Shown here: positions 4,625 to 55,049 of the stretch, in pieces
Position numbering within the stretch: position 1 is the stretch's first letter
How the letters are laid out: each line of letters begins with the position of its first letter
DNA from: Cyanidioschyzon merolae
Lineage: Eukaryota
Reading direction: 5' to 3' (one strand)
Assembly (NCBI GenBank): GCA_000091205.1
Contig: AP006494.2
DNA: 64,000 bases
The notes under the pieces: generated by a model
What the model saw: only the letters and a program-made list of their open reading frames with translations
What the model was told of the DNA's origin: nothing
Database searches by the model: none
Translations under genes and position numbers: made by a program

Positions 4625-6395
4625 TGAATCGACTCTGCATGGTTCCATTGACGTTTTTCTCCATATCTTCGATCGTTCCGTTCGAGAGCAACGCTTAGGC
4701 GCAGTCACAAGCGCTGCTGGATCGTCGAGTATCCATGATCGACGTCATTTTCTGAGGCTTGCTTCATACGATCATGTCAGCGGATCACTGAACATGTTAC
4801 GATGAATCATTGATCCGCCTCGAAAGGCCAATGAATCGGTATTCGTGGCCATGCAGCAGGAGCAGCAGTGGGATACTTTGCATACACCATGCATCCGGAG
4901 GCTCCCGTCTCTTCTGGTTGCATAGAAATGGGCCTTGGAGTTTCATCTTCGCAGCAACGGTGTTTCGTGGAGCGTTCGTCAACGCTCTGGATGACGGGGC
5001 ATAGACGGATCGAATTCGTCGATTGCTTCTCCAATCTGGATTTTACGTGCGGTACTCGTTTCATCGTGGACAACATCGCGTTTCGTGATTGCTTTGTCGA
5101 ATGGAACAGCGTGCACATGCGTCTCCGGTAGACAGCGTACTCGCACTGGGAATCGTCAAGCACGAGCTTGTGATCCCCCGGTGTCTGGCATTGTGTGCAG
5201 CAGCAACGGAAACCAGCATCAAATTGTATCACCTGTATGTGTCAAGGGCATGTACCGAGCGATGAAGCAAGCATGGACGCGCCGCAGTGCTCCAACCGGA
5301 CCAAGAGGTGTGATATTCATTCGGGGAACCGGTAACCGCTGTGAAATGTCACCGCTTTGAGACGCGCGCTAAACCTGCATACAAAGACAGCGTGATCCCC
5401 GGGGAAGCGAAGCGTAGATCGACATGACGCGCTGCGCGTGAAACGCTCGAACAACATCCCAAAGTGGCGACACACGAAGCTGGAGCGCCAAGAGCAACCA
5501 GCACATATAAAGCCGCAGAAACGAGTGAGGACAAGGACGCAGTCTCAGATCAAGCATGCCAACACTGGTGTACACCACGATAATGAACGACGAGACGCAA
5601 TCTTAAGCGTCGACGCTCGAGTCAGAGGAGCATCTCCACGCAACGCGGACACGGGGTGCAGGACTAGGAATCCGATCTACAGTAGAGATCGAGCCAGCGA
5701 ACTGTACCTCGGTAGCGTACCCATATCACCTGATGCTTTCGAGTTGGTACAGCTTACCGAATCACGAGCAATCTCTTAGGATGGTATGCTGCAGCTATGC
5801 GGTGCGTCGACGCCGCGCCCCCGAACGCAGTACCCCGACAGACGGCCAAGCACAGGCGCGTGTTTCTCTCCGGGTAGGTTTGCGTCTTGGCATATAAGAC
5901 GCGATCAGGGCCAAGTCTAGGTAACGGAGCGTACATCCGTTTTCGATGCTATCGAGTACAACGTGTCCAAATGGACACATGATTCCCGCAGATGACGCGC
6001 AACTGGGACACTGATGAATACGAGCGGCCGGCCTGATGCTCCCGCAAGGCGCCACGCTTCCGACAACTCGCTTTCGTATGCGCAAGCACGCGCGCATGCA
6101 CCCTTTCAACACCCTGGAGCGCCATACCCGCCTCCATACGCCCGAGTGATGCTCCAAAGCGCCGCCTTGCCTCATCTCTACTGCACGCTTCGTCATCCGG
6201 TGCAGTGCGCCTCCAATATCGTGCGACGGTAGGCGCAGAGAAAGCGCCAGTGATCGCTGGCAAACACCAGCGCGCCGTTCCCTGTGGACGCACCACACAC
6301 TGCCGCTCGACAACGTTACCTCCATAATGCTGAGCTGCAGCCGCATCGATGGAGGCATCTCGAATCCCGGTGTGCATCCGCGCCTGTACAACGGA

Positions 6396-9300
6396 TCATT
6401 TGCGTCGCTCAGCATCGCGTATGACGTGGAGCGGCGATTCGACGAGAGCGGCAACATGCCAGAGTAACCGATGCGAGACGGTGCTCGCGAGCTCCTGCTT
6501 TGTCCATCCATCGCCGGTACCCGCGCTTGCAGCGGATTCGTCTCCAGGGGATGTTGTGAGCAGGCGCAGGCTCGTGGCACTAGCACGCTGCATAGCGTCG
6601 AGGTTCGCGTCTCGTCCGGTGCCGGACTCGAGAACCTGAACCAGTGCCGCCGACAATACGCCGATAAGGGCCAAAAATTCCGCAGCCCAGGGAATCGCTT
6701 CCTCTGTCGACTGCGACGACTCGGAGTCAGCATCGCGAACGTGCATCATTGCGGCTTCGCGTTCAGTGTACAGCCAGCAGCCCAAACCGTGGAGCAACAC
6801 AAGATCTTGAGCGTTCTCCACTGACAGGACGCGCCAGCGAAGGAAAATATACAGGATCCAAAGCGCCAGCAGTTGCACGCGACTGAACGGCGGTGCGTTC
6901 CAGAGGATTCGCAGCCAGAAACACCACGGCGATGCGGCGGGCTCGCCGCCAGCCACCGCACCCGTCACGACTCGCAGCGCGTGGAGCGTGGACGCACGTC
7001 GGACGGTGCTCGCAGCGCCAATGATCGCTACGAAACCCAGGCAACCGACAAGCACGAGTTCCTGGCACGGCGAGCGAGCATCGTGATCCTGTCCGCTGAC
7101 CTGCTGCAGCCAGGATGCGACACTGCGTCCCATGTGACCTAGATACGCACTGGCGCGTTCTGCAGCATCGCCAGCATCAGCGTCGGTCTGCACCAGCGTC
7201 AACGCCAACGCCTGCATCGCGGAGAGCGCGGATAGCAGGTCTGCAGGTCCGAGTGCGTACTCGCTGGCAGCAAGTTCGCACAGATGCGCAGCAAGATCGC
7301 TTCGAGACGATACCAGTTGAGAAGTGCCCGCCGGGTGTGCAGCGCGGCGAACGCGCTGCCGCAGCTCATCCCAGAGCAGTGCACCAGCAACCCGAACCAG
7401 TGCCATACGCCTCGCGTAATCCTGTCGATGCAGGGTGTCGGGTACCTGCAGCGGTCTCGCGTCCGGTGCTCCCGGTCTATCCAGTGACGCGTGCAACCCA
7501 CTGAGAAGCCAAGGTAGTACTTGGCTTCGATGGATTGCATCCATGAGCGCTTGTGTTTCGGAGGCGTTCGGGCACTGGCCTGGCAGCGACCTGAACCACG
7601 CATCGGCGAACTGAACGAAGCGAGCGCGATCGTTGGTACGCAGCGTCAGCAACAGCACCTGGCGCCAGTGCCGCCATGGCGCCGCTCGCTGACGAATCGC
7701 AGCAGCGATCGCGTGAACGCGCCAGCTTTCCGAGACCGCTTCCGTGGCCTCGGATGACGTTGCCATCATCCATTCGTGCAGCGGCACCTGCTCGAGCAGC
7801 CACGACACAAGGTTCACCGGCAAGCGACTACCTGCCCAATGCATCCACAGAAAAATGACGTTGTCTTTCCAGGTCGTTTGCGCGGACTGTCCGCGCACCT
7901 CTGTACCTGGAAACAGATCTGCGCTGGTCTCTGGCATTCGCGATACGCTGAGCGCATCCAGCCAGTCGAAGAGTTCCGGTTGCCGACCAGCGAAGCATTT
8001 GTGGAAGCGCTGGCTACCTGTTGGCTGCGCGAGGACGGAACGCACAGCTTGGCGAGCGCGCTTCTCCAGAAGCGTCCGCTGAACCTGCGCATACCAGGCA
8101 AGTGGTGTGCACGGAACCGATGGACTCGACGCCGCAGTGTATCCCAGCAAGGTCCGCATCGCTGCCAACGACTCGACCAGCGCCTCGCCGGTCACGAATG
8201 ACGAGGCAGCGTCGCCCGTGGACGCGTCGTCGTCGTCGTCGTCGTGTAGCAGTACACGCCTTGGCGTCCTTGCTTCGTCTTCCGAGCACACCACCGGTAG
8301 CACTGCTTCGTAACGAATGCACGGCAGATTGCAAAGGCATCGCATCAAGGAATGCAGCACGGAAGCAATGGCCGGCAGCAGCTCTGTTCTGGACGGCTCC
8401 GTGTGCAGCGCCAGGAACGAGATGCGCCACAGCAGTATTGGATGCTGGGCAGCGCGAATCAGACGATGGCATTCTTCGAGATTCTTTCCGAGCGGTTGCA
8501 GGATTGGCCAGATCCGGATGAGCCACCAGCACCAGAGCCGCGGCGCGACGCTCGTCTGTGCGCATGAAAATACGTGGTTGTTGTTGTTGTCGTCGTCGTC
8601 GCCGCCGACATCACCACCAGCACCACCATCACCATCATCATCAACAATGTCGTCATGCTGGTCGTCGTCGTCGTCGTCGACTGCTGGCATCCGACCGGTG
8701 GCGTGGCGTTCACGGACTCGACGCTGGTGCTCGCGGTGTCGCGTGCTGGCTGCCGGAGACGGGCCCTGCTCGCCGCTAGCGTCGAGCGCAGTCACGGTAC
8801 CAGTGTCCGCGAATCCACTCGCTTCGACGGCTGCGCGATGGAGCACGCAAGTCGGCAGCGTCTCAACGATAAACGAGCGAGCAAGCGCAGCGCTCCCGGA
8901 AGCAGCGGACGCAACTTGTGCTGCGCTCTCAACCAGGTCGCGGAACTTGTCGCATGCGTACAAGGTCTCCAACAAAGATCTCCCCTGATCAGCACCGATA
9001 CCACGTTGCAGTTGCTGGAGCAGGCACGACGCAAAAACCCTTTCCTGGTCGGCTGCCGGGCACCTGGTGCATTCGGCGATGCGCAGGCGCTGGGCCAAGG
9101 CTCCGAACATCCCGCGCAGCGCGTGCCTGATGGGCGCCGAGCATCCGATGCCGGCGCGCTGCCGCTGTTGGGACAAGTCGCTCACCAGTGCCGCAAACTG
9201 GCGAATGACCTGTTCGTGACAGGGTATGCCTGTAGTCTTGACCAGTTTTCGGAGCACGGTCAGCAGTTCGAGCAGAAATCGCGATTGCTGTTGGTGCACG

Positions 9301-11156
9301 CCCCTGGAAATGCTCCAGCCTGGAGCTCGACAGCCATGCTCGTCAAGAAGTTTGCTCGCATGATGGCAGCACAGTGTGAACAGGAGCGTTGATCGACTAG
9401 AGAGTTCTTCCGACGGGAGTACCGCGCAAACCTGGAAGCAGGCGCGGAGTCGCAACTGACTTGAATCGCTCGTCACGAGACGCCCCGGCTGGGGTGCGTC
9501 TTGCGTCCAGCGTCGCGATGACAGCGGCGATGCCCAGGTTTGCCCGGCGGGTCCGCGCGCTGCGTCACCGTACGCGAGCGAGGCGCCCGGTTGGACCGCG
9601 ATCCCGGCATCCGCTGGTAACTGACGGTCACCGGATTTCTTTTCCAGGACTGCACCGTCACAGCAAATGCATTCTACCACATAGTCCGCGAAGCCGGAAA
9701 TGCGCAACGCCTCTGCGTCTTCCCAAAGGACGGCGTTCTCGTCGGCAGAGCGCACTGCGGCTGCGAGGACGCGCCCCAGCACCTGCAGCATGCCACGCAA
9801 GGAGCGCAACGCGAGGAGATTCAGCTCGAGGAAGTACGGCTGTGCGATGCATCGTTTCAAAAAATCCGACCATGGCGCCGACAAGGCGACCCGTCGCCAC
9901 CCGACGAATAGGTTCTCGGAATGCATTCGAGGTTGCACCTTAGCTATGCGCTGACACATGACGCTCGACATGGAGAGCACATTGGCGGCGTCGGCTGAGC
10001 AGGCACACCGCAGCGCTCGATGTGACACGAGTTGCATCAGTCGAGTGCAACATGAAAGCGCCGTCTCGGGGCTCATATACGCTCCCAGAGCTTGCATGAG
10101 CAGGCGCATGGTGTATAAGACACGCGTCGTCGCATTCGCCGCCTCGATGGCGGTTTCCCGATCTTGGCTACACTGAAGAAGCAGCTCGTGATCGAGGAAG
10201 GCGAGCAGCGCCTCAAACGCATCACGGCAAACGGTTCCGAGACGCTCGCGCCAACTAGCTGAATCAGAGACGGGCCCGGTGACGGCCGCTCGATAACCAA
10301 AACGGCACTGCTGCATTGCGACTAGCGGCTGACCAGCCTTCTCCCGGCACTGGGCGACTGCCACAAAGAATTGCAGAAAAGCACGCATCTCATGCCATAC
10401 GCCGTCCAGGCTGGCACAATGATGAGCAACCCCAACGAGGTATACGGTTTCCAGGGTGGAGGCGTCACCTTCAGGCCGCGCTCTCGAAATCTGCTGTGTG
10501 CATTTGGACGTGACGCAGCATCCGCTCATGGCGTTGTGAAGGTCAAACGCCCGGCTCGTGATCTGACAGAGCACCTGCAGAAGCGACGTGGTCAGGGCCC
10601 TCTGGCGACTGCTCGGTTTCAACGCTCGCTGCGTGGCCTGCTCCATTGGCGGCGGATTTGGTGCAAGCTCGGCACTGCCAGCAGCTACCGCAGTTGCGAT
10701 GCCATGAATCAGATACGCCAGCGCCTCGCCAAGCGCCGTGGCAGTAGCAGCAGCAGCAGCAGCAGCAGCCATGGAACCCTGCGACATCCCCAACGTGCCA
10801 TCCAAACCAGCAGGCGACTCGAGGAGCTCTAACCAGTCCAGGGCATACTGCAGCCTTGTCGCTGCACCCCGGTGATGCTCATCGGCGAGCACACGCACGA
10901 AGCACACAACACAGGGCTGTGCAGGCGCCAACGATCTTGAGCGCGAACGTGCAGCTCTTTCCAAGATCAGCCAACGACTTGGCTCTCCTGGATGCAACTT
11001 TTCGCACTCGTTCGAGTGGCTTTCCATCGAAGAAACCCCAGCGAAGTTTGATGTGTTTGTGAAAGCAACCCGACACAAAGACCTGCAATGACACGAGCGC
11101 GTACACACTCCAGAAATGCGTGCATGGAATACAAAACAAAGTCTGCAGCGCAGCAC
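6396..11156 (-). CDS. Large 1586-aa protein of unknown function. It is rich in Leu, Ala and Cys and probably all alpha-helical-repeat. It has an internal polyacidic stretch (DDDDDDQHDDIVDDDGDGGAGGDVGGDDDDNNNN), a second Asp run, and a poly-Ala/Ser stretch.
   Basis: A single uninterrupted 4.76-kb ORF in GC-rich DNA, which is extremely unlikely by chance. I recognise no catalytic motif. The antisense + ORFs inside it (8317..8988 and 8574..9392) are low-complexity artefacts. Confidence 0.7.
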   Translation of the reverse strand: MLRCRLCFVFHARISGVCTRSCHCRSLCRVAFTNTSNFAGVSSMESHSNECEKLHPGEPSRWLILERAARSRSRSLAPAQPCVVCFVRVLADEHHRGAATRLQYALDWLELLESPAGLDGTLGMSQGSMAAAAAAAATATALGEALAYLIHGIATAVAAGSAELAPNPPPMEQATQRALKPSSRQRALTTSLLQVLCQITSRAFDLHNAMSGCCVTSKCTQQISRARPEGDASTLETVYLVGVAHHCASLDGVWHEMRAFLQFFVAVAQCREKAGQPLVAMQQCRFGYRAAVTGPVSDSASWRERLGTVCRDAFEALLAFLDHELLLQCSQDRETAIEAANATTRVLYTMRLLMQALGAYMSPETALSCCTRLMQLVSHRALRCACSADAANVLSMSSVMCQRIAKVQPRMHSENLFVGWRRVALSAPWSDFLKRCIAQPYFLELNLLALRSLRGMLQVLGRVLAAAVRSADENAVLWEDAEALRISGFADYVVECICCDGAVLEKKSGDRQLPADAGIAVQPGASLAYGDAARGPAGQTWASPLSSRRWTQDAPQPGRLVTSDSSQLRLRACFQVCAVLPSEELSSRSTLLFTLCCHHASKLLDEHGCRAPGWSISRGVHQQQSRFLLELLTVLRKLVKTTGIPCHEQVIRQFAALVSDLSQQRQRAGIGCSAPIRHALRGMFGALAQRLRIAECTRCPAADQERVFASCLLQQLQRGIGADQGRSLLETLYACDKFRDLVESAAQVASAASGSAALARSFIVETLPTCVLHRAAVEASGFADTGTVTALDASGEQGPSPAASTRHREHQRRVRERHATGRMPAVDDDDDDQHDDIVDDDGDGGAGGDVGGDDDDNNNNHVFSCAQTSVAPRLWCWWLIRIWPILQPLGKNLEECHRLIRAAQHPILLWRISFLALHTEPSRTELLPAIASVLHSLMRCLCNLPCIRYEAVLPVVCSEDEARTPRRVLLHDDDDDDASTGDAASSFVTGEALVESLAAMRTLLGYTAASSPSVPCTPLAWYAQVQRTLLEKRARQAVRSVLAQPTGSQRFHKCFAGRQPELFDWLDALSVSRMPETSADLFPGTEVRGQSAQTTWKDNVIFLWMHWAGSRLPVNLVSWLLEQVPLHEWMMATSSEATEAVSESWRVHAIAAAIRQRAAPWRHWRQVLLLTLRTNDRARFVQFADAWFRSLPGQCPNASETQALMDAIHRSQVLPWLLSGLHASLDRPGAPDARPLQVPDTLHRQDYARRMALVRVAGALLWDELRQRVRRAAHPAGTSQLVSSRSDLAAHLCELAASEYALGPADLLSALSAMQALALTLVQTDADAGDAAERASAYLGHMGRSVASWLQQVSGQDHDARSPCQELVLVGCLGFVAIIGAASTVRRASTLHALRVVTGAVAGGEPAASPWCFWLRILWNAPPFSRVQLLALWILYIFLRWRVLSVENAQDLVLLHGLGCWLYTEREAAMMHVRDADSESSQSTEEAIPWAAEFLALIGVLSAALVQVLESGTGRDANLDAMQRASATSLRLLTTSPGDESAASAGTGDGWTKQELASTVSHRLLWHVAALVESPLHVIRDAERRK
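8578..8690 (-). repeat. Coding trinucleotide tract inside the 1586-aa gene. On the + strand it reads (GTT)n(GTC)n(GCC)n...(ATC/ACC)n(GTC)n and encodes the Asp/Asn/Gly-rich acidic insert.
   Basis: Directly visible. A second (GTC)7 tract lies at 8226-8247. Confidence 0.85.
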
Positions 11157-29753: not shown

Positions 29754-31209
29754 AATCCCTCGCACAGACCCGGGTGCAGACAACCTAGTCACTAGTGGGT
29801 GTACCATCCGAGATCGCAGCATGTGCGGCATCGCTGCGCCGTCTGACGCGGGGCTTGATCCATGGATCATCGCCGGTGACACCGTTCCCGGGAACACGCA
29901 CGCGCAGGACACGTTGCGGCGTCGTGTCAAGTGCAATCGAATGGCGGGATTCGAGCTGCGCAGGCCCGGCGTCCGAGTGTCGCATGCGTGCGGATCCGAA
30001 TGGACACACCCCAGGCAGCTGTGGATGCCTGACCTGCGGGGTCACGGTGCGCACACGAGGGCCGAGAGGCGCGGTGTGCGGCGCGCGCGAGCCGAGGTCA
30101 CTCCTGGCTTCCAGGGCATGCGACATCGAAGGAGGAATCCCGACTCCAGCAAGCCCAGGTGTCTCTGTGTGTCACTTTCTTGCACTTGGGGATATCTGCA
30201 GGGCGTGCTATGCCCCGTATTTGAACTCTTCACTGGTATTCATGGGGAATGGTGTGTGCGTTAGCGCCAAAGGCGGACGGTATCCGGTATATCGCATGCA
30301 GGCTGCGGCCTGATGCGTCATCACCCGCAGCACGATCTCGATGCGTATACGCGTTGTTTGCTTTTCAGGCGGCACAGAATCGTTTCCAGGAACGAGAGAT
30401 ACGTCACTGCTTGATGGTTATCGGCATCCGGGAGAGGCGTACTCGCAATGCGGATACGAATCCCGCCCCCTGTGTGTGCTCGGTAGCGCGGGGCTGCCCA
30501 GTTCCATCCCAGAGCCGAAAATCGCCATCCCATGTGCGTCGTCCGGGCGCCATCGGTGGCTCGCAGCGGCAGCGAAGTGCAGGGCGACAGGCACCTTTGT
30601 TCCGTGCATGCAAGCTCGATAGGCGTACCGGTTGACCGCATACCTCCGACGACGCCTACCTGCTGCAGTTTTGCGAGTCCCGTCAGCGCTCCGGCACCTG
30701 TTTCGAACACGTAACAGATCCGAATACCAGCAGAAGATTGGATTGCAGCGCTTGGTGGAGGCCGCTGGAAGCACCCGGCGCTCCGTGCTTCACTTGGAAG
30801 TTACCCAGCGCTCTGCTGTAAAGAACACACGACGCACCACACTCGAGTTATCGAGGACAGCACCCGAAATATGAAATCAGCAGGATCACGTCTGCTTATT
30901 GCGTCTCTTACCATGAAACAGCGCGCCTGTCAAATTACCCGCTACGGTACGGTTATACCAGCTGCAGACGAGCCAGTAAAGCCTACCTCACGGAATCGAC
31001 GCGACAGCGACTGCAGCTGCGTGACTGGCGGCCTCATCGAGCGTAAGTGGCGACATCGCGCACGGCCCTGAACTGCCGTCGAGTTCGGAGAGCGCCTGGG
31101 TATCGTGCTTCAGAAGAGCGGAAAGGTGGTTGCTGCTCTTTGCTCAGACGTTTTTTGTTCGTGTCATTGCTCCCTGTTTGGGGCATACACTTCCTCTCTG
31201 ATCTCCTGA

Positions 31210-34200
31210 ATGCTTAGTAGATTAGGAACGAGTCGGGGAGGATCATCTGGGGCCGGGGCGAGAACGCTGCCTAAGCTGTCGCCGTCGCCACAAGCGCTGC
31301 CGCGTCACTCGGTGCAGCGCTGCGGCTGCAGCTGCTGCGGTGAACAGCACTACTCCCCGGAACTCATGCTGGTGGACGTGAATGTCGCCGCGTTAGGTTC
31401 TCGGGAACGTTCCCAAGGGTGGCTCCCCAAGGAGCACAGTAGCGCTTGCCTCGGTGGCTTCGTTGGACCCTGTTGGAACGTCAAGGGGGCGCCTCGGGGC
31501 GCCAGCAACTCCACCGGCGCTCAGTACACCTGCACGGGGCAACTGCGGAGTAGCTTGTGCGCACATGCATTGCACGCTTCCCGAGAGCAATGCATGGGTG
31601 GCAGAGGGCGCGCGAGCCTCTCTTGTGCGTCTCTAGTTGGCGGACGATCACGACGTGCGGAGCTCTTCACTCGATGCCCTGGAGCTGCAGGCAGGCTGAG
31701 GTCAACCGGCCGTTTTCCGCCCCGACTGTTGCCTGCTGGACAACTCATGGACAGTGGAGCGCGCAGCATGTATGCACAGGCCACAGGCGGTGCAAAAGGT
31801 CATCCCATGAATGGCGATGTTCCGCGAGAACCAGCGAGCCCCAACGACAAACGAATAGAAAGCGAGGGTGAGTTGAACACGGACGCGATTGCCAAAGCAG
31901 ATGCCGCAAATGAGCACAAACGCGGACGACCAGCGACGCCTCAGCGGAGTCCAAAGGCTCCCGAGAACGCCACTGGTAAAGGCGGAAAGCGCAAAGATCG
32001 GGAGGTCTTCACCGCGCTTGAGGCTTTCGGGCTAGTTCCGAGCAGGCGTCGTGATGATCAGCCTCAGATGCGTAGAGGACGCAAAACTAAGAGCGGGTGG
32101 ATTTTTACGATCATCTCAGAAGCGCTTCTGGGTTCTAAGGGCGCACCCTTGAAACGAGAAGAGAAACAGCAGCTCGTCGCGCTCGAGAGCAGACTCGTGA
32201 GCATGGTTCGCGAACTCTCGGCCTCGCCTCCGCTATCGCAACCAGCGGAAGATATTCGACAGGCATGGTTGATTCTGGATCGCATTCGGAGCCTCGTTTT
32301 CTATGCGGATGTGCTGAACGATACGTACGTGGCCAGCTTTATTCTTGCGCTGAAAGGCGTCGTCAGCTCAGCGCTGCTTCTTGGAATGGGCACAGATTTT
32401 CTGGAGCAGTCGGCCTCAGAGCATCACGGAATGAATGCAGAACGAGACGCTCCGGGAGGACGTCTGCTTTCGTCGGTTGCGACGCGGGCACGAAACACAC
32501 GCAAGCGCCGCAGCCAGCGAAACGATGACCCACGGCGACCGGAGCTTGTCTCGCGTATGAATGATCAGCTCGTTGAAGAGATCTTGGCTTCTGGAGATAC
32601 TATCGACAATCATTGGCTAGCTCCATTAGACAGCAAATGGGCCTCGGCTCCGTGGAAGACGCCCTTCATGCAGTTCTATCGGAATCTAACGGAGCTGCGC
32701 GTTAAGCAGGGACAGACCTGGGAGGGTCACATTCTGGACCTGACGCTTCACCCCACGAACATATTTGCCCAGAGTTTGCAGCGTTCGCGTGGCCTCAATA
32801 ATGCTGCAAGTAGCACCGATCCGAATATGGATGCTGAGAATGCTTCGTTGAACGATCAAGAAATGATTCCTGGGCTGCAGGTCGTACCCAGCGGCGATGC
32901 TGTGTCTGAGGCGGAGCTCACGGAACAAAGTACGGCTTCGGAAGCCAGTTGGTACGATCTGGACGGGCGCACGATAGCGGCCATGGTGCGTCAAGACCTG
33001 GATATCTTGCAGAGTCTCTGTGCTTGGTCGCTTCATCGCCTCGCGAGATGTATTGCCTTGAGTCTCATGGGACTTACTGAAGACGAACTCGAGCATTTGT
33101 ACCAGCAACTGACTTTCAATAGCAAACAGTCGGCACAAGGTGAATCCAGCGAGCATACTGCCTTCGACGCAGCTGAGTCGCTGGTCGTTCTCCTGGCCAG
33201 GGAGGCGCCCTCTACCATTTCCCTGCTGGAAAATGGCCTCGTTGCACATCATCCTGTTCCGCGAGCGGTCGTTGCGGATGCGCTGGAACAGAGCCTCCGG
33301 TCGCTGCTCTTCAAGAGCGCGCTCTCCGCTGTGGGCGCTGCTGGAATACCGCAGCACCGCTGGAGCCAATTCTATCCACTGATCGCGAAAAGAATCCGTC
33401 TTCGAGGAGACGGTATACTTGGGCAATACTTCATGCTCTATTACTCGAATCGCGAACAATGTTTCAGACCCGTGGAGTCTGCCGACACGGTGCGTCTCGA
33501 CGATTTAGTCGGGTACGATGAAATCAAGCAAGCATTTATCCAGAATATCAAGTACTTTATCGCCGGTCATTATGCGCACCATACGCTTTTGATTGGTGCT
33601 CACGGCACCGGCAAGTCGGCGCTCGTCAAAGCTGCGGCAGCCGAATTCTATCGAATGGGTCTGCGTCTCGTGCAGTTGGATAGTGGATACTTTGGAGCTG
33701 CCCAGGGCCTGGGAACCCTCCCCATTGTGCGAATTCAGAAGAGCAGAGCCAAGAGCCGCCTAACCGAGCAGGACATTCCGTTCGGGACATTGGGCCTTAT
33801 GCACGACATGCAGGGCATCGCCAAGGAGGCCGTCAATCACCCACATTTGCGCTTTCTGCTATTCATTGACGATGTGCCCTTGGATGAGAGAGATCCTCGG
33901 CTCGTTGCTTTGCGAGGTATCATGAGCGGTGGCCTGCTCACGCTGCCGAAGAATCTGATTATTGTGGCCACATGCAGCTCCAGCGTCTCTGGTCCTGATC
34001 TGTTCGCCCTGAGCGTCACGTCCACAGAGGAGGACTTTATTCAGTCGGGAAAATATCGTTTCCGGCGACGCCTGCGGGTCGTGCCCTATGTGGATCTCTA
34101 CGAATTCTTCTCAGGTCTATCGGATGAAACCATTATTTTTTTGGATCGGTTTGGAATGGTGCTGACCTTCAATTCGCCGAGCAAGTCAAAGTACTTGGAC

Positions 34201-34611
34201 TTTGTCCGAAGTGCGTTGGAGCGATACGGGAGCACGGCGCGACGCATTCCCTGGCAAACGCTGCGTCGCCGTGCGCTAGTCTATGCCCGAATGCGTTGTT
34301 CGTTTTCGGCGAGAACTGCTCGTCACTTTATTGCCGCGGTCGAGGACGAGCAGCGGTTTATGCATGCGAGCGCGCCAATGATGCCGTCTGCGGACTCGCT
34401 TGCTACCATGAGAATATCTGATCCAGATAACGATGATGACGATGAAGAAGAGGAAGATGACGACGAAGACGAGGAAGAGGAGGAGGATTTTGAGGATGAA
34501 GCGCTGTACGATGATGACGACGATGATGATGATGACGATGATGATGATGACGACGATGATGATGACGACGATGATGACGATGATGATGATGACGGCAAGC
34601 GCGGTGCCTAA
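31210..34611 (+). CDS. P-loop ATPase of the DUF815 type (AAA+-like). The ATPase core reads LDDLVGYDEIKQAFIQNIKYFIAGHYAHHTLLIGAHGTGKSALVKAAAAEFYRMGLRLVQL. An N-terminal extension of at least 500 aa and a C-terminal polyacidic tail of about 60 residues (D/E) flank it. The likely true start is an internal ATG at about 31747-31807.
   Basis: The block D-LiG-e-k..l..N...F..G.pa.nvLLwGarGtGKSslvkA...e....gLrlvev is characteristic of the DUF815 family found in bacteria, archaea and plants. The first ~200 codons of the maximal ORF are Cys/Gly/Arg-rich and are overlapped by other open frames. They are therefore probably 5' leader rather than coding sequence. Confidence 0.7.
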   Translation: MLSRLGTSRGGSSGAGARTLPKLSPSPQALPRHSVQRCGCSCCGEQHYSPELMLVDVNVAALGSRERSQGWLPKEHSSACLGGFVGPCWNVKGAPRGASNSTGAQYTCTGQLRSSLCAHALHASREQCMGGRGRASLSCASLVGGRSRRAELFTRCPGAAGRLRSTGRFPPRLLPAGQLMDSGARSMYAQATGGAKGHPMNGDVPREPASPNDKRIESEGELNTDAIAKADAANEHKRGRPATPQRSPKAPENATGKGGKRKDREVFTALEAFGLVPSRRRDDQPQMRRGRKTKSGWIFTIISEALLGSKGAPLKREEKQQLVALESRLVSMVRELSASPPLSQPAEDIRQAWLILDRIRSLVFYADVLNDTYVASFILALKGVVSSALLLGMGTDFLEQSASEHHGMNAERDAPGGRLLSSVATRARNTRKRRSQRNDDPRRPELVSRMNDQLVEEILASGDTIDNHWLAPLDSKWASAPWKTPFMQFYRNLTELRVKQGQTWEGHILDLTLHPTNIFAQSLQRSRGLNNAASSTDPNMDAENASLNDQEMIPGLQVVPSGDAVSEAELTEQSTASEASWYDLDGRTIAAMVRQDLDILQSLCAWSLHRLARCIALSLMGLTEDELEHLYQQLTFNSKQSAQGESSEHTAFDAAESLVVLLAREAPSTISLLENGLVAHHPVPRAVVADALEQSLRSLLFKSALSAVGAAGIPQHRWSQFYPLIAKRIRLRGDGILGQYFMLYYSNREQCFRPVESADTVRLDDLVGYDEIKQAFIQNIKYFIAGHYAHHTLLIGAHGTGKSALVKAAAAEFYRMGLRLVQLDSGYFGAAQGLGTLPIVRIQKSRAKSRLTEQDIPFGTLGLMHDMQGIAKEAVNHPHLRFLLFIDDVPLDERDPRLVALRGIMSGGLLTLPKNLIIVATCSSSVSGPDLFALSVTSTEEDFIQSGKYRFRRRLRVVPYVDLYEFFSGLSDETIIFLDRFGMVLTFNSPSKSKYLDFVRSALERYGSTARRIPWQTLRRRALVYARMRCSFSARTARHFIAAVEDEQRFMHASAPMMPSADSLATMRISDPDNDDDDEEEEDDDEDEEEEEDFEDEALYDDDDDDDDDDDDDDDDDDDDDDDDDDDDGKRGA
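34425..34600 (+). repeat. In-frame (GAT/GAC/GAA/GAG)n trinucleotide tract encoding the polyacidic tail of the DUF815 ATPase.
   Basis: Directly visible as gatgatgacgatgaagaagaggaagatgacgac...gatgatgatgacgacgatgat. Confidence 0.9.
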
Positions 34612-37264
34612 CGTGCATGCGTCTTCGTTGGTGGTTCCGCCTTACGAGCAGCTTGCCTCAGTAAGCGCTTACAATCGCCTCGCACTCGAGCGACTGCACG
34701 TTCAACGACAGCTTCTGGTTTCGGACCATCTCGATGATCATCGATGGAGGTCGAATACGGTATCCGTAGCAATCGGAAATCGTTCAACTAAAGGTACAGA
34801 ATCTCTGTGAAGGCAACTCGTTGCGTACGCTGTATGTGCGGCGTGCACTTGTTCACTTATGCTGCGGCGGGGTCAAGCGGCAAACCGCGAATGTAGGTGT
34901 CCATGAGCGCTGTGCGTTTCCCATGCAGCGGCGCATGGTCTGTTCGAAACCTCTCGCCAGTGTCGGCAAGGCGACGCATCCAACGAAGATACCACATCAG
35001 TCGCCTCGAGCGCTCATCCTGACTCGTGGATGGGTTGCATTGCTCCGCTGTGGCGGTGTTACGTGAGGACGACTTTAATGCGCTCGTTTCGAGCCGGAGC
35101 TACCAACGGTATACGTCGTGCGATGGCCGGTTTTCCATCGAGAAGCCGCACGCGTGGCTGGTTCGTGATGCTCATGGAGGCGAAGAGTCGGCTTTGGAAG
35201 CTTTAGGAGTTTTCGATACACCTCTTGCTACGTATCTAAGAGTGCTCTTTTCGTTGCTGCAGGGGAAATGGAGAATGTGTCCGGCGGGAACGGTGCCTAG
35301 CGTCTTACGCCAGCGTTCGAGGTTGGATGGCGAACCGAATAATTGCTGCTTGCGCGATTCATTCATCATGCGAAACGCAATCGAATGAGCAGCATGAGAA
35401 AACCCCCGATTGAAAGTGGTACACTTACACGAGAATTAGAATGGAGCGCGTTGACAGAGCCAGGTCATAAGTGGACGCTCATAATTCAAGTTATTTCGCT
35501 TGTCGTGACCAGTAGACTTTTTGGGGATATGGATGTGACGGCATGCTTTTCCGCTCCTGTATCTCCAGTTTTCACACGCTGATCTCGGATTTCAATCGCG
35601 TTGTCTTGTCATGAGTCGAAGGATGCTGATAGCAGCGTGCAAGTCGCGATTTCGCAGATTCCAGCTGTTGCCGACAAGTTTCATGCCTGACGACCGTTGC
35701 ATCTGTAGATCGTGTTCCATTTTCATCCTGATTGTATACGACCCTGGTGCGCGCTTGCCAGCTGTAAAGCACCTGGTTGTCGTCGGGTGTGCTCGGATGT
35801 CGCGCACATTTCCTCCGTTAAGCGCTGCCCAATGGAGCGTAGACGCGTGCATCATCTTTCGGTACATTCCCTCGAATAGCACAGAAGGCTCTGCTCAATA
35901 TCCCTCTCCGTTTTCCATGCTCCGTAATGTACCATATGATGACGGACTTGTTTCAGGGCGATGCCCACAGCGAGTACGGTGTCCGCTGCATGCAAAATCG
36001 CACGCTGCTCTATTCGAAAGCGGATTCCTGGAACGCGACGCTGTCCATGATGAATGCGGACGGAAAGGAAATATCCAGATTAGAGAAGAGATAAAGATGA
36101 TTGGGTCCCTTCGTGCGAAGCGGTGACGCGCTCACCACTCGACGCGATCGCTGCGATGACTATCATCGAAGCCCACGACGCTCTTGCATGCAAACACAAG
36201 CGACCGCAGCCTCTGGGAGCGCATACCCTTATAAGTACGATGACAGAGTCGAACGCCGTTTCTTCAATAGCCATAAACAGGGTGCGATTTGTTTCTCGAA
36301 CGAAATCAATGATTTGACGTGAGGGTTTCTGTGAACGTTGGGCACGGACCTGCCCACAAGTCATCATCATCGGAGAATGTCGAGTTCTCTCTGGTCCATA
36401 TAGTGATACGACTTTCTGCATCCACGCGTTGCCTTGGAACAGCAACATCGAAACCCTGAAAACCCGTGATTCTAGTATGCTCCACGTAAGGAAATCAATA
36501 GACTGGAGGCTTGCACGTACGCGTTGCATCCTGGCATTGGTTATTGTACGAGCCCTTTCCCGAGCGCGTCGCGAAACACGTCGATTCCGGTAACCTGACG
36601 CACTCCAGCAGCGTAGCGCCGAGTGCGCTATGTCGCAAACACAACCGAGAAACCTATAACGACATACGTATCCATAACCCCTGATTCCTACTTTTCAAAC
36701 GTCGAGAGCGTCCCTCTAGGAAACGCTCGGAAGGAAATCCCACAACGCGGGAACAGTGCACGCATACGCGTACCCAATCTGCGCTCGACGCGGGTGTCTC
36801 GCAATTCGCAGCCCGCAGCGGATCGCGAGATCGAGCGCGCGGGGCGCGGGTGATCAGCGCACGGCCGCCGCCGTTTCGAGCAGAAACACCAGGCGCTGCG
36901 GCTGCGCGATGCAGCAATCCGCGCGGCTGCAGCTGCAGATCCGTGAGCGAATTTGCCGATGAGGCGGCATGCGTCTGGCGCGTGTCCGACGCGTGCACGC
37001 GGAGCGGCACGTGTCAGGCAGCAGCGCCCCGAGGTGTACCGGGTACAACTCGCAGTGGGCGCATGTCGAGCAGCGGAGTTGCGTCACCAGGCGCGTGTCG
37101 ACTGGCGTTGGGTCTTAGGAGGCTCTGCTCGACGCCAGCAGGTGCTCCCCAGGAGTTGATTTACACGCTTCTAGGCTTTAGGGCTGACGTCAGTTGCGGG
37201 TAGGTGTATGGCGCGTGTGTCAAAGTGTGCAGTGTTGACTGTGGCTTGAACGCGTTCAGGCTGC

Positions 37265-39067
37265 GTGACTCTCGGACCCAGTATGTCGGGTGAAACGATC
37301 GAGTGTATGCCGAGTGCAGAGCTTCAACAGTTGCCTGGGTCGGTGACTTGCTCTGATAGTCCAGTCAAGGCTCCCGACAGTGATGATTCGGAGATCGGCC
37401 AGACACCAGCTGATATGGTGCCGAAATCGAAGCCTCTCGCGAAAGCAGACCCTAGCCCGGTGCAGCACAGCTTCCGAGCGCGCTGCAAAGCGTGGCTGAA
37501 AGAGCTCCTTCGTTTTGCTGGTCCAGGATGGCTGATATGTATTGCACTTATTGACCCCGGTAACTACGAGGGTGACATTCAAGCCGGAGCCGGGTACCAA
37601 TACGCGCTCATTTGGATCATCTGGTGGGCGACCATCGCCGAGATCTGCATTCAGGCGCTCACCATTCGACTTGGGCTGTATGCACGCCGCGATCTCGGGC
37701 AAGCGTGCCGGGAAACCTACCCACGCTGGGTTACGATCGCGCTGTGGATCCTGTCGGAGATCGGGATGATGGCCACGGATCTGCTGCAGGTCATCGGCTT
37801 TGGGGTCGCAACAGAGATTTTGTTTGGAATTCCGCTCTATGCAGGTGTCCTGCTCTCGTTTGCGACGACGTTGTTGCTCTTGTCCACACAGTATGTTTCG
37901 TTTCGGCTGCTCGAGATAATTGTCATCGTGTTGGTGTTCATCATGTCGATTACTTTTTTCATTCAGTGGGGCATGGTCGACACCGACGGTGCGGCGCTTT
38001 TGCGCGGATGGGTTGTGCCCAGCATCCCCAGCGGCTCCGCGTTGATCTTACTATCGCAAATCGGTGCATCCGTGAGCCCGCACAATGTTTTCCTGCAGTC
38101 GGCCCTGGTCCAGACTCGGACAGTGGACCGCACCAAAAAGGCGCTCCGATCAGCGACGATGTTCAACATCATCGAAATGACGATTCCGATGATGTTGGCT
38201 TTCGTGGTGAATCTGGCAGTCATAGCGCTCGCTGCTCAAGGCTTCTACAATAGTCCAGCTGTCGACGTGAATCCGAATGACATTACCCTGCGCGACACAT
38301 GCAAACTCATTCACCGAGTATACGCCAACTCAGGCGCTGGATGCATCTTGTTTGGCATCTCATTGCTCGCGTCTGCGCAGAGTGCGACGATCTCTGCCAC
38401 GTACGCGGGTCAGATTGTGATGGAGGGCTTTCTGAATATCAGGCTCCCGTTGTGGTTGAGGAACCTGACAACGCGCACAATCACCATTGTACCCGGTTTG
38501 TTTATCGCAATATTTGCGGGAAACAATGGCTCGGGGCTCGCGCTTCTGATTTCATCATCGATACTGTCGGGGGTGATCCCTTTTCTCATAGTGCCGCTGC
38601 TCAAGTTCACGAACAGTGCTGCCTGCATGGGTCCGTATCGCAACTCGTGGTACGTGCGATGGCCCATGTGGACGCTTACGCTCGCGATTATCGCAGCAAA
38701 CTTATACCTGATCGCGGGTGCTGGTGGTAATCGAACGTTGCGCCAAGCGCTTTCCAGTGGTGGCCCCGGAAGCACCGCGGGTATTGTGTTCACGGTGATT
38801 ATCGGGCTACTGTACGTTGGGTTTCTGGTCTACTTGATGCTCAGGCCCGTTGGCATCGTCGGCGACGCGTACGACATCGACGACGGGGTTATGGGGCTTG
38901 TCGAGTCGGGTTTCGAGACGCACGTTCGCATGGAACCGAAACCTGTACCGAATGAACCGACTCGGCCCGAGCCCGCATTTTTGCCTCCCGATGCGCACAG
39001 TGCAGAGGATGCTCCACTGGGGAAGAATTTTTCGGAGCAATCTTTGAGTGAGGACGCCAGTTCTTGA
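37265..39067 (+). CDS. NRAMP: NRAMP-family divalent metal (Mn2+/Fe2+) transporter, 600 aa.
   Basis: The NRAMP signature region LIDPGNYEGDIQAGAGYQYALIWIIWWAT corresponds to the consensus DPGN...D.QAGA..GY.LLW. The translation shows 11-12 hydrophobic segments. A conserved block reads GQIVMEGFLNIRLPLWLRNLTTR. Confidence 0.9.
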   Translation: MTLGPSMSGETIECMPSAELQQLPGSVTCSDSPVKAPDSDDSEIGQTPADMVPKSKPLAKADPSPVQHSFRARCKAWLKELLRFAGPGWLICIALIDPGNYEGDIQAGAGYQYALIWIIWWATIAEICIQALTIRLGLYARRDLGQACRETYPRWVTIALWILSEIGMMATDLLQVIGFGVATEILFGIPLYAGVLLSFATTLLLLSTQYVSFRLLEIIVIVLVFIMSITFFIQWGMVDTDGAALLRGWVVPSIPSGSALILLSQIGASVSPHNVFLQSALVQTRTVDRTKKALRSATMFNIIEMTIPMMLAFVVNLAVIALAAQGFYNSPAVDVNPNDITLRDTCKLIHRVYANSGAGCILFGISLLASAQSATISATYAGQIVMEGFLNIRLPLWLRNLTTRTITIVPGLFIAIFAGNNGSGLALLISSSILSGVIPFLIVPLLKFTNSAACMGPYRNSWYVRWPMWTLTLAIIAANLYLIAGAGGNRTLRQALSSGGPGSTAGIVFTVIIGLLYVGFLVYLMLRPVGIVGDAYDIDDGVMGLVESGFETHVRMEPKPVPNEPTRPEPAFLPPDAHSAEDAPLGKNFSEQSLSEDASS

Positions 39068-52889: not shown

Positions 52890-55049
52890 ATGCTGCCTCC
52901 GGTGGCGTTTCTGCCCCAGCCGGTACGGCCTGGGACCCGTTCCAAACGCAAGCCAGAAGCCAGAGTCAAACGGCAGAAACGCGCACTTCGCCGTCGAGTG
53001 CCTTGCCAGAGTTCCTTGACGCCCAGCCGCAGTCAGGCCCCGAAAGCACTGTTTCCGGGTGACGTCGAGGCGTGGTTACGCGCTGCCGCCAAACGCCGTC
53101 AAAGGCTACAGTCTCCAGACAGCGGTGTTTTGCTGGTGCTCGCGGCGCTCGTCGGCGCAGGTACTGGCCTTGGTGTGACACTCTTCAAGACCGCGATTCG
53201 TGGCGTCTCGGATTTTGGGTACGGTGACACGGTGGCCGGCGCACTGCTACCGTTCGTCGGGTCCTTGAACTTGATCGCGGTGCCTACCATGGGTGGTGCT
53301 TGTGTCAGCTTCCTGAAACTAAGATTCGGAGCGCTAGACGGAGGTATTGAGGCCATGCTTCGATCCATGGAGAAGAATGAACGGTTCCAGAGCGCCGGTG
53401 CAATTGTTAAAGCCATAGCAGCTGTGTTCACGCTCGGGAGCGGATGTTCGCTGGGTCCAGAAGGCCCCTCTGTGGAAATCGGGGCATCAGTGGCGCGTCT
53501 CATTCCGCAATGGGCGAGTGAAAGACTACAATGGCGGCTCTCTAGTGAGCGACTGCGTCAGCTTTTCGCTTGTGGATGTGCAGCGGGCGTTGCGGCAGGT
53601 TTCAACGCTCCGTTCGCCGGGGTACTCTTCGCGAACGAAATCGCGCAGCGAGCGGGCGGGAATCACACTGAATCTGGCACTGGGGCAAGTACAACGCCGG
53701 CTTTGCTCGTGGCGTCGGCGTTGAGCTCGCTCGTTGCGAGACTGGGTCTCGGCGAGCGCCCGGCTTTCTCGATACCGAACTATGACCTGCGGAATCCGTT
53801 GCTCGAGCTTCCACTTTATCTGGGATTGGGATTCTTGGCGGGGCTGGCGAGCCTCGGGTTTCGGAAAGCGCTCCTGCTGGGTCAAAACCTTTACCAATGC
53901 ACAGGATTGCGACGGATTCCCGTTGCCTGGCGACCGCTTTGTGGTGGTCTCCTCAACGGCATGGTTGGCTTCGTCTTTCCGCAGATTCTCTTTTTTGGCT
54001 ACGACATGCTGGACGCTCTGTTAGCGGATACGAATTTCAGCATTCCGCTCCTGGCTGGCTTGCTGTTCCTGAAGCCCCTCATGACTGCCGCGAGTCTCGG
54101 CAGTGGCCTTGTGGGCGGGACTTTTGCGCCCGCTCTCTTCGTTGGTGCGAATCTGGGGGCCCTCTACTGCAAATCCATCGAATGCGCGGGCAACGCGCTC
54201 CTTGCGATTGTCTTCAAGACTTTGGGTGCAACAACGGCCACTGCACTGTCCGGTTCGATCCCGATTGCGGGGCCTCCAGCGTATGCCATGGTTGGCATGG
54301 CGGCAGTCCTAGCGGGAATGTTTCGTGCACCACTCACCGGGTGCTTGCTGCTGTTCGAGATGACCCGAGACTATCGTATCATTCTGCCTTTAATGGCGGG
54401 TGTCGGCGTCAGCACCTGGATCGCGGATGACACCAGGCAACAGGTCCGAGCTTCTCCATCCGCCTATGCAACGAAGCGAAACGAAGGCCCTTCGCCGCTC
54501 TACCTGGGGCTGCGTCCAGATGCCGAGTTTCGCTCCGTGGCAGCTTGCCTCAGCGTGCGCGATGGACTCTCACCGCTCAAACCGGTCTTCCTCGATGCGC
54601 AATGCAGCGTGTCGGTTGCACTGGAACGCTTCCGACCGCTGGAGCACGGGTGCATTCTAGTGACGACCACAATGCCGGTGGAACAGATTCAGGGGCTCGT
54701 TACCGTTCGGGATTTACTTCGGGCCAAGAGCGAGTTCGGCGCTCTGCAGGGCATCACTCTGGGTGAGATTTGCTCGACTGATTTCGAAAGCATCTCGCTA
54801 GAGGAACCACTTGTGCGGGCTCTGGAAATTCTTGAATCCAATTCAGCGCCGCTTCTGCCAGTTGTGGTCGGCACGACTACCGAGGAACGCGGGAGAAGCG
54901 AGCAACCTAATGGCGCCTATGAAAGTCCAAGTCGAATGAAGATTTCACCCTCGATGGTTTGTGGTTTTGTAGATCTGACCAGCATTGAGCGAGCGGTGCA
55001 GTTTTCTCGTCTGCAGATGGCGGCTCGCGAACCCGATGGACCAAGTTAA
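52890..55049 (+). CDS. CLC: CLC-family chloride channel / Cl-/H+ antiporter with a C-terminal CBS-domain pair, 719 aa.
   Basis: The selectivity-filter motifs are GSGCSLGPEGPSVEIG (GSGIP / GxEGP) and GGTFAPALFVG (GxFxP). There are many hydrophobic helices. The C-terminal VTVRDLLRA region is CBS-like. Confidence 0.9.
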   Translation: MLPPVAFLPQPVRPGTRSKRKPEARVKRQKRALRRRVPCQSSLTPSRSQAPKALFPGDVEAWLRAAAKRRQRLQSPDSGVLLVLAALVGAGTGLGVTLFKTAIRGVSDFGYGDTVAGALLPFVGSLNLIAVPTMGGACVSFLKLRFGALDGGIEAMLRSMEKNERFQSAGAIVKAIAAVFTLGSGCSLGPEGPSVEIGASVARLIPQWASERLQWRLSSERLRQLFACGCAAGVAAGFNAPFAGVLFANEIAQRAGGNHTESGTGASTTPALLVASALSSLVARLGLGERPAFSIPNYDLRNPLLELPLYLGLGFLAGLASLGFRKALLLGQNLYQCTGLRRIPVAWRPLCGGLLNGMVGFVFPQILFFGYDMLDALLADTNFSIPLLAGLLFLKPLMTAASLGSGLVGGTFAPALFVGANLGALYCKSIECAGNALLAIVFKTLGATTATALSGSIPIAGPPAYAMVGMAAVLAGMFRAPLTGCLLLFEMTRDYRIILPLMAGVGVSTWIADDTRQQVRASPSAYATKRNEGPSPLYLGLRPDAEFRSVAACLSVRDGLSPLKPVFLDAQCSVSVALERFRPLEHGCILVTTTMPVEQIQGLVTVRDLLRAKSEFGALQGITLGEICSTDFESISLEEPLVRALEILESNSAPLLPVVVGTTTEERGRSEQPNGAYESPSRMKISPSMVCGFVDLTSIERAVQFSRLQMAAREPDGPS

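Follow-up and report, generated by a model that had tools for sequence, protein, structure and literature searches.

The open reading frame (ORF) at positions 31210 to 34611, on the plus strand of a 64,000-nucleotide stretch of the Cyanidioschyzon merolae genome (GenBank assembly GCA_000091205.1, contig AP006494.2; hereafter "the window"), is a genuine nuclear-genome gene of 1133 codons plus stop encoding a bacterial-type AAA+ ATPase of the DUF815/COG2607 family. With modest confidence, we favor an account in which this ATPase derives from a cyanobacterium, was once targeted to the plastid, and has since been roughly doubled in length by disordered inserts and has acquired an acidic tail maintained by selection.

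The protein follows the two-domain plan of DUF815 ATPases

A hidden Markov model (HMM) search of Pfam with the translation matched PF05673 (DUF815) at E = 4e-43 and 147.8 bits (cutoff 23.8), confirming the family membership proposed in an initial annotation made from the sequence. The match covers ORF residues ~745-1040 and is broken into three stretches because inserts intervene. It lies in the C-terminal third of the ORF, at the end where the annotation had placed the ATPase core. The unusual length that it reported is likewise real: the protein exceeds a typical 437-amino acid (aa) member by ~500-700 aa.

The source of this surplus was sought outside the Pfam model, which describes the ATPase only (residues 192-431 of a 437-aa bacterial member) and does not reach the 190-aa N-terminal domain. 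When 51 bacterial N-domains were made into a profile (191 positions, lying outside the Pfam model), it matched the N-terminal region of the window protein with an E-value of 2e-8, the best of 1000 shuffles reaching 0.03. The match spans residues 156-537 (numbered from the ATG at 31807, as are all residues below unless referred to the ORF) and falls into four pieces separated by inserts. The same profile matches the homolog of the red alga Bangiopsis in a single piece (E = 1.5e-29), and two alignments also found the bacterial N-domain in the N-terminal region of the window protein. What had been described as an N-terminal extension of about 500 aa does account for extra length, but it is not a single new block; it consists largely of the family's own helical N-domain interrupted by disordered inserts. 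The surplus length thus comes from disordered additions to the usual plan of two domains, and no folded domain has been added.

In detail, and with all features on the plus strand, the ORF begins with an unconserved extension (31210-31695; ~160 codons) that is rich in Gly, Ser, Ala and Arg and has a net charge of ~+17. Downstream of a short, weakly conserved stretch considered below, a charged, disordered leader (31807-32211; residues 1-135, isoelectric point (pI) 10.3) carries the basic clusters KGGKRKDR and RRGRKTK. The helical N-terminal domain (32212-33360) alternates conserved blocks with three lineage-specific inserts: block 1 (32212-32391, residues 136-195), insert 1 (32392-32655, residues 196-283, carrying the cluster TRKRRSQR), block 2 (32656-32796, residues 284-330), insert 2 (32797-32958, residues 331-384, acidic and devoid of Lys and Arg), block 3 (32959-33066, residues 385-420) and insert 3 (33067-33360, residues 421-518). 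A linker and the AAA+ module occupy the sequence from residue 519. The module itself, corresponding to the Pfam DUF815 region (33442-34410), has the large alpha/beta subdomain and helical lid of the AAA+ fold and harbors inserts 4 and 5. In AlphaFold2 models, the conserved blocks score above 90 on the predicted local distance difference test (pLDDT), whereas the leader (residues 1-98), the inserts and the tail score below 50.

Relatives and origin

An exhaustive HMMER search of 1.84 billion representative sequences yielded 1338 matches; an earlier homology search with the tail in the query had been swamped by poly-Asp candidates and gave one match. Only four of the 1338 are close relatives, and these come from Cyanidiophyceae only; all others are ordinary DUF815 proteins of ~400-470 aa. 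The closest ortholog, P0001, is a metagenomic sequence of 896 aa (1079 aa in the NCBI model, P0151) with 56% identity, whose locus (L001) is syntenic, with an Nramp gene downstream. The second is a 100%-identical fragment, and the remaining two come from Cyanidium caldarium (KAK4536450.1) and Galdieria partita (GJQ12049.1). The Cyanidiophyceae homologs have the same expanded architecture, with an acidic tract in each, and share the positions of the inserts except for Galdieria, where only the N-domain is expanded. Three basic clusters within the disordered parts, RRGRKTK, TRKRRSQR and RFRRRLR, are kept in both the C. merolae protein and P0001.

Elsewhere, DUF815 genes were found by genome scanning to be common in Clostridia, cyanobacteria, Chloroflexota and Rubrobacter. 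Bacterial and cyanobacterial members, such as Synechocystis slr0930 and Caldanaerobius WP_073341132, have the same plan of helical N-domain plus AAA+ module and the same GxxGTGKS, hhhhDD, DRFG and R-T-A motifs. However, they measure ~430 aa as against 934-1133 aa in C. merolae, and lack inserts, acidic tract and presequence. The homologs of mesophilic red algae (Bangiopsis, Purpureofilum and two MMETSP transcripts; ~555 aa) have the same domains as the C. merolae protein but are of near-bacterial length, with an additional N-terminus of ~80 aa resembling a plastid transit peptide; they have neither large inserts nor a polyacidic tract (at most 9-11 Asp or Glu in 20 residues). In a neighbor-joining tree built on 393 well-aligned columns, the red algal sequences, mesophilic members included, form a single clade in 100 of 100 bootstraps and group with the cyanobacteria in 57 of 100. 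The tree is thus in line with an endosymbiotic origin, short of proving it.

The surroundings of 74 bacterial homologs (loci L006-L085) were also inspected. A gene for chorismate mutase/prephenate dehydratase (PheA) lies upstream in 21 of the 74, a Ppx/GppA phosphatase gene downstream in 14, and a polyphosphate kinase gene once; RuvA or NFACT genes lie downstream in three loci each. We read the PheA and Ppx/GppA associations as stemming mainly from related Clostridia (apparently mostly Clostridia/Lachnospiraceae, in counts not broken down by taxon). No partner recurring across phyla, and hence no functional clue, emerged among the 74 homologs, and the PADLOC defence models returned nothing beyond P-loop noise.

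A polyacidic tract that appears to be maintained

The nearly uninterrupted acidic run noted in the initial annotation lies at 34420-34593 and contains 52 Asp or Glu in 58 residues, including 28 consecutive Asp. It is followed by GKRGA and by the stop codon (34609-34611); the last 66 residues of the protein (869-934) thus hold all 52. The tract is made of GAT, GAC, GAA and GAG codons, seen by Tandem Repeats Finder as a GAT/GAC array of period 3, 9 and 15, and is unique among the window ORFs of at least 150 aa. It is predicted to be disordered and lowers the pI of the protein to 4.9, from a mildly basic 8.55 in its absence. The annotation had further described the tract as slippage-prone. Accordingly, two environmental contigs (L003 and L086, 99% identical) share an in-frame insertion of 15 nucleotides (nt) at 34509.

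In the comparison with the ortholog, the first ~160 codons of the ORF have no amino acid similarity. Insert positions are common to both proteins, and P0001 also ends in an acidic tail, ~35 residues long as against 58 in C. merolae. Strain substitutions within the tail are either GAT to GAC or Asp to Glu, and in the coding sequence (CDS) past 31807 as a whole the window differs from L003 by 14-15 synonymous and 5 nonsynonymous changes. The ortholog tail, the in-frame length variant, the nature of the tail substitutions and the CDS-wide ratio together indicate that the tail is translated and maintained. Moreover, segments with at least 15 Asp or Glu in 20 residues are present in all four Cyanidiophyceae lineages and in none of ~150 other family members, where the maximum is 11 in 20. 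The tract is found at three different places: C. merolae and P0001 bear it at the C-terminus, Cyanidium in insert 5 and Galdieria in an insert of the N-domain.

Conceivably, tail and inserts could be neutral slippage expansions in a GC-rich, intron-poor genome, decorating what is functionally an ordinary DUF815 ATPase. Variation of tail length between near-identical strains, the shifting location of the tract among Cyanidium, Galdieria and Cyanidioschyzon, and the predicted disorder of every insert all suit such an origin, as does the position of the nonsynonymous strain differences, which sit in the lineage-specific inserts of the N-domain (ORF residues 582-637). This is still a rather unlikely explanation in our judgment, as it leaves aside that a C-terminal acidic tail is kept across two lineages only 56% identical, that a tract marks all four Cyanidiophyceae lineages and none of the ~150 others, that basic clusters within the inserts are conserved and that the indels of the tail are in frame.

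Translation probably starts upstream of ATG 31807

The 199 codons from 31210 to 31806 contain no in-frame stop, while the other five frames contain 4-6 each. The same is true of the 184-codon upstream extension in L001. First-order Markov simulations give such a stop-free frame a probability of ~0.01 in the window and ~0.007 in L001. In addition, the segment 31696-31806 (plus strand) is a weakly conserved coding stretch with motifs LRSTG..RF..SG..A.A..GA.G. Similarity to L001 in this frame can be followed from 31807 over at least 43 upstream codons, and the differences at conserved residues are mostly third-position changes. The local score of this stretch is 38 in frame, a value reached by 36 of 2000 shuffles, as compared to 19 and 28 in the other two frames. 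Finally, the part of L001 lying between the head of the 184-codon extension and the MNG motif lacks an in-frame ATG. The stop-free frames, the in-frame similarity and the lack of an internal ATG in L001 suggest that translation probably begins upstream of 31747, 31768 and 31807, so that all three starts considered in the initial annotation are probably too far downstream. Candidate starts are 31210, 31366 and 31594; there is no ATG within 31100-31210. Of the three downstream codons, 31807 is conserved in the ortholog together with its context (ATGAATGGCG), and 31747 and 31768 are unconserved. The ortholog model, which begins at ATG 31807, BLASTP and this context would favor that codon as the start, but the stop-free frames and the alignment of codons argue against it; the codon thus encodes an internal Met or serves as an alternative start.

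It is possible, though we consider it doubtful, that the upstream 199 codons are non-coding and that translation from 31807, or from 31747 or 31768, yields a cytosolic or nuclear protein of 934-954 aa without targeting sequence. Besides the conservation of ATG 31807 and its context in L001, several properties of the upstream ORF speak for such a protein. Amino acid similarity ends ~45 codons upstream of 31807, and 31210-31695 has none to the L001 extension. Composition is odd, with a GC content at second codon positions (GC2) of 0.65 and 11 Cys (5.5%); codon-usage scoring gave a lower score here and was uninformative. The strain differences are neutral-like (4 nonsynonymous to 1 synonymous; Fisher P = 0.08 versus the CDS), and open stretches of at least 150 codons are found in nearby intergenic DNA (6/218). 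None of this accounts for the synonymous character of the changes over at least 43 upstream codons, for the stop-free frame in both species, or for the sole in-frame ATG of the L001 extension being at its very start. Furthermore, the gene models of Cyanidium likewise extend far at the N-terminus in an open frame, and two strains differ there by an indel that keeps the frame. A fast-evolving presequence reconciles the evidence on both sides, and 31210-31695 is probably translated as such.

Four contigs from different samples start within 25 nt of one another, 50-75 nt upstream of ATG 31210 (L004 and L086 at 31135, L005 at 31149 and L087, in its main block, at 31159). This cluster could mark the transcription start, provided that the samples are RNA. 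These ends were not relied on as transcript 5′ ends, as L086 extends to 36741, 2.1 kilobases (kb) past the stop codon, and DNA and RNA origins are indistinguishable.

Localization

Proteins destined for red algal plastids typically carry transit peptides that start with M-x-x-F and are poor in acidic and rich in basic and Ser/Thr residues. The mesophilic red algal homologs have this look: they start with M-x-x-F-[VL], and their first 60 residues include 1-2 acidic, 12-13 basic and 15-19 Ser or Thr. The C. merolae ORF, read from 31210, begins MLSRLGTSRGG and has its first acidic residue at position 45, and so appears presequence-like. Because the red algal clade groups weakly with cyanobacteria and its mesophilic members begin like transit peptides, an organellar location would be at least as likely as a nuclear one. 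We lean towards the organelle as somewhat the likelier for the C. merolae protein, a nuclear or dual location being possible as well.

From the analogy of its tail with those of nucleoplasmin or HMG proteins, the initial annotation had proposed a nuclear or chromatin-linked role. The ATPase would then have been recruited to the nucleus as a chaperone of histones or other basic proteins. Nucleoplasmin, HMGB1, NAP1/SET and Yta7/ATAD2 do likewise bear a long disordered Asp/Glu tract on a folded body, which in Yta7/ATAD2 is also an AAA+ motor, and the tract described here has 52 Asp or Glu in 58 residues. Clusters resembling nuclear localization signals (KGGKRKDR, RRGRKTK, TRKRRSQR, RFRRRLR) are present and conserved within the disordered parts, alongside the presequence-like N-terminus and the plastid-targeted look of the relatives, and a start at the conserved ATG 31807 would give an acidic N-terminus unlike a presequence. 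Yet no Pfam match to a nucleoplasmin core, HMG box, NAP domain or bromodomain was obtained at E-values up to 1 with either the whole ORF or its N-terminal 538 aa, and homology to these chaperones is limited to the generic AAA+ fold. The coding signal upstream of 31807 makes a basic, acid-poor presequence probable, and the mesophilic relatives look plastid-targeted. Acidic tails are also carried by non-nuclear proteins. A nuclear chaperone seems to us unlikely.

Motor motifs and inserts in the ATPase module

The conservation of the ATPase motifs was counted over 92 aligned family sequences. The Lys of Walker A (GAHGTGKS, 33595-33618), the DD pair of Walker B (FLLFIDD, 33853-33873), the R, F and G of the DRFG motif (34144-34155) and the Arg and Ala of the sensor-2 region (SARTAR, 34306-34323) are invariant in all 92, the window protein included. 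The DRFG Arg is likely to be the arginine finger, by analogy with the RPGRFD and DRFG motifs of other AAA+ proteins.

The sensor-1 region departs from this pattern. Here the family motif ATSNRRH reads ATCSSSV (33967-33987), and strain L003 carries the identical sequence. The Asn, present in 89 of the 92, is replaced by Ser in the window protein only; the two Arg of NRRH (89/92 and 84/92, respectively) are both lost. Bacterial and cyanobacterial members keep the Asn and NRRH, and the Asn is also kept in P0001, Cyanidium and Galdieria, leaving C. merolae as the only one of the Cyanidiophyceae homologs with Ser. The motif is nonetheless partly decayed in other red algal members (N-PGAL in P0001, V in P0005, G in P0163), which argues that the missing ATSNRRH is divergence inside the DUF815 family and no ground for exclusion from it.

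Loss of these residues could be taken further, as the mark of a degenerate pseudo-ATPase that binds nucleotide without hydrolyzing it and works as a scaffold or switch. The unique Ser, the change of NRRH to SSSV and the decay of the motif in related red algae fit that picture; retention of the Walker A Lys, the Walker B DD pair and the DRFG and sensor-2 Arg, all invariant across the family, does not, nor does purifying selection on the CDS. Other AAA+ proteins use Ser or Thr at the sensor-1 position, so that hydrolysis may be unimpaired. We regard a pseudo-ATPase as improbable.

Two of the inserts lie within the module. Insert 4 (33682-33792; 37 aa, residues 626-662) separates beta-2 from alpha-2, the canonical site of pore loop 1, an aromatic-hydrophobic-Gly element, in threading AAA+ motors (classical and Clp-type unfoldases); the insert itself is modelled with low confidence. 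It opens with GYFG (33685-33696), matched by GYFG in P0001 and GFLG in Cyanidium. Galdieria lacks it, as do the other red algae and every bacterial member. Insert 5 (33979-34116; residues 725-770) follows sensor 1 and contains the basic cluster RFRRRLR (34057-34077), which reads RRSRSRRRLR in the ortholog; the same site holds the polyacidic tract in Cyanidium. A profile search of the PDB sequences found no solved structure of a DUF815 member.

Strain variants and neighboring genes

The gene is intact in strain L003. Two other contigs, L005 and L086 (a Logan contig, SRR29605861, and a JGI contig, 3300053660), carry a 13-nt deletion at 32666-32678 (TCATGCAGTTCTA) that shifts the frame in N-domain block 2 and for this reason causes gene callers to split the gene (302/436 aa plus 624/658 aa). 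Either a naturally occurring null allele or an artefact of sibling samples might explain it. L004 has a 305-nt gap (32425-32729) that was considered as an intron and rejected on account of the lack of GT-AG borders, microhomology at the junction and the resulting frame shift. L087 is chimeric, with 32668 joined back to 32426. The L004 and L087 breakpoints gather around insert 1 by short CGGAAT repeats and may reflect template switching or structural polymorphism.

The window has a GC content of ~56% and long intron-free ORFs on either strand, coding for such eukaryotic domains as LIM, Med14, PUF, an eEF1A-like GTPase, a CLC channel and Nramp. The CLC protein (52890-55049) matches C. merolae 10D BAM80852.1 / XP_005536888.1 residue for residue, which identifies the window as DNA of strain 10D. 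Six start-codon variants of the DUF815 ORF (31210-34608) found no exact match in a collection of 15 billion proteins; the annotated 10D model of this gene must therefore depart in start, tail length or assembly version. The first gene downstream is the Nramp gene (37265-39067), which is probably CmNRAMP2, cited as CML262C (bioRxiv 10.1101/2024.12.23.630115). No mention of CML260C-CML264C was found in a search of the literature.

The 2.6-kb spacer between the ATPase and Nramp genes appears non-coding. When it (34612-37264) was compared with its L001 counterpart (5475-7203), the 171-aa ORF that it contains (35611-36126) gave no BLASTP alignment to the ORF called at the equivalent place. Two ORFs antisense to the DUF815 gene, a 91-aa poly-Ser mirror of the GAT/GAC tract (34323-34598, minus strand) and a 257-aa frame opposite the N-domain (32686-33459, minus strand), are by-products of composition rather than genes. 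Elsewhere, the largest ORF of the window (6396-11156, minus strand; 1586 aa) has no Pfam match at E-values up to 0.001, and a second, unrelated AAA ATPase gene is found at 946-4239 on the plus strand (1097 aa; PF00004, E = 5e-43; N-terminal region ~720 aa).

Discussion

The history we propose would run as follows. The single red algal clade most likely came from the cyanobacterial endosymbiont, and its product was originally plastid-targeted. In the lineage of Cyanidium and Cyanidioschyzon the protein would then have grown to ~900-1130 aa with no new folded domain, by gaining a basic, unconserved presequence, a charged leader, three disordered inserts in the N-domain, two in the ATPase and a polyacidic tract. 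As Walker A, Walker B, the DRFG Arg and sensor 2 are intact, the motor would be expected to have retained ATP binding and oligomeric working, with the loss of the sensor-1 Asn and of NRRH suggesting altered, possibly slower, hydrolysis. The tail would be a translated, selected and length-labile electrostatic module that most likely either binds basic partners (for example, nucleic-acid-binding or ribosomal-type proteins) or gates the ATPase by folding onto conserved basic clusters of the same protein. Our best guess from the sequence is a remodeller that works as an ATP-dependent oligomer and engages one or the other through its acidic tract. The one functional lead found for the family comes from Synechocystis, where slr0930 co-purifies with the RNA-binding protein YlxR/RnpM and belongs, like the RNase P protein, to the most enriched proteins (PMC11622646). 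A more elaborate proposal, by which the GYFG insert would be a pore-loop-like element and the polyacidic tract a client-binding one in a remodelled substrate-engaging machine for basic nucleic-acid-binding proteins, with the alternative starts at 31210 and 31807 giving organellar and nuclear isoforms, strikes us as highly improbable.

Several points count against the account that we favor. The weak support for the sister relationship to cyanobacteria, at 57% in a simple neighbor-joining tree of 393 columns, is one. Another concerns plastid targeting, since the C. merolae, P0001-lineage and Cyanidium presequences do not resemble one another and lack the M-x-x-F start; the latter two are also less convincing, that of the P0001 lineage having acidic residues from position 8. 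The position of the acidic tract shifts between lineages, and neutral low-complexity growth would fit this too. The neutral-like strain differences described for the upstream region belong here as well, as does the use of Ser or Thr as sensor 1 by other AAA+ proteins. Lastly, literature searches, which also covered slr0930 and At1g73170, found no experimental study of any DUF815 protein, so that every functional statement made here is inferred.

What is described is a lineage-specific, low-complexity elaboration of a family that is known but uncharacterized. The genome is already published, and the system is not of a new kind. DUF815/COG2607 is widespread, occurring in Clostridia, cyanobacteria, Chloroflexota, Rubrobacter and red algae, yet no experimental function was found for it. 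C. merolae is genetically tractable and apparently possesses an unusually decorated copy, which might provide the family with its first localization and phenotype. The recurrent, position-shifting acidic tracts of the Cyanidiophyceae, in turn, would offer a small, clean case in which to ask whether such tracts are selected or neutral.

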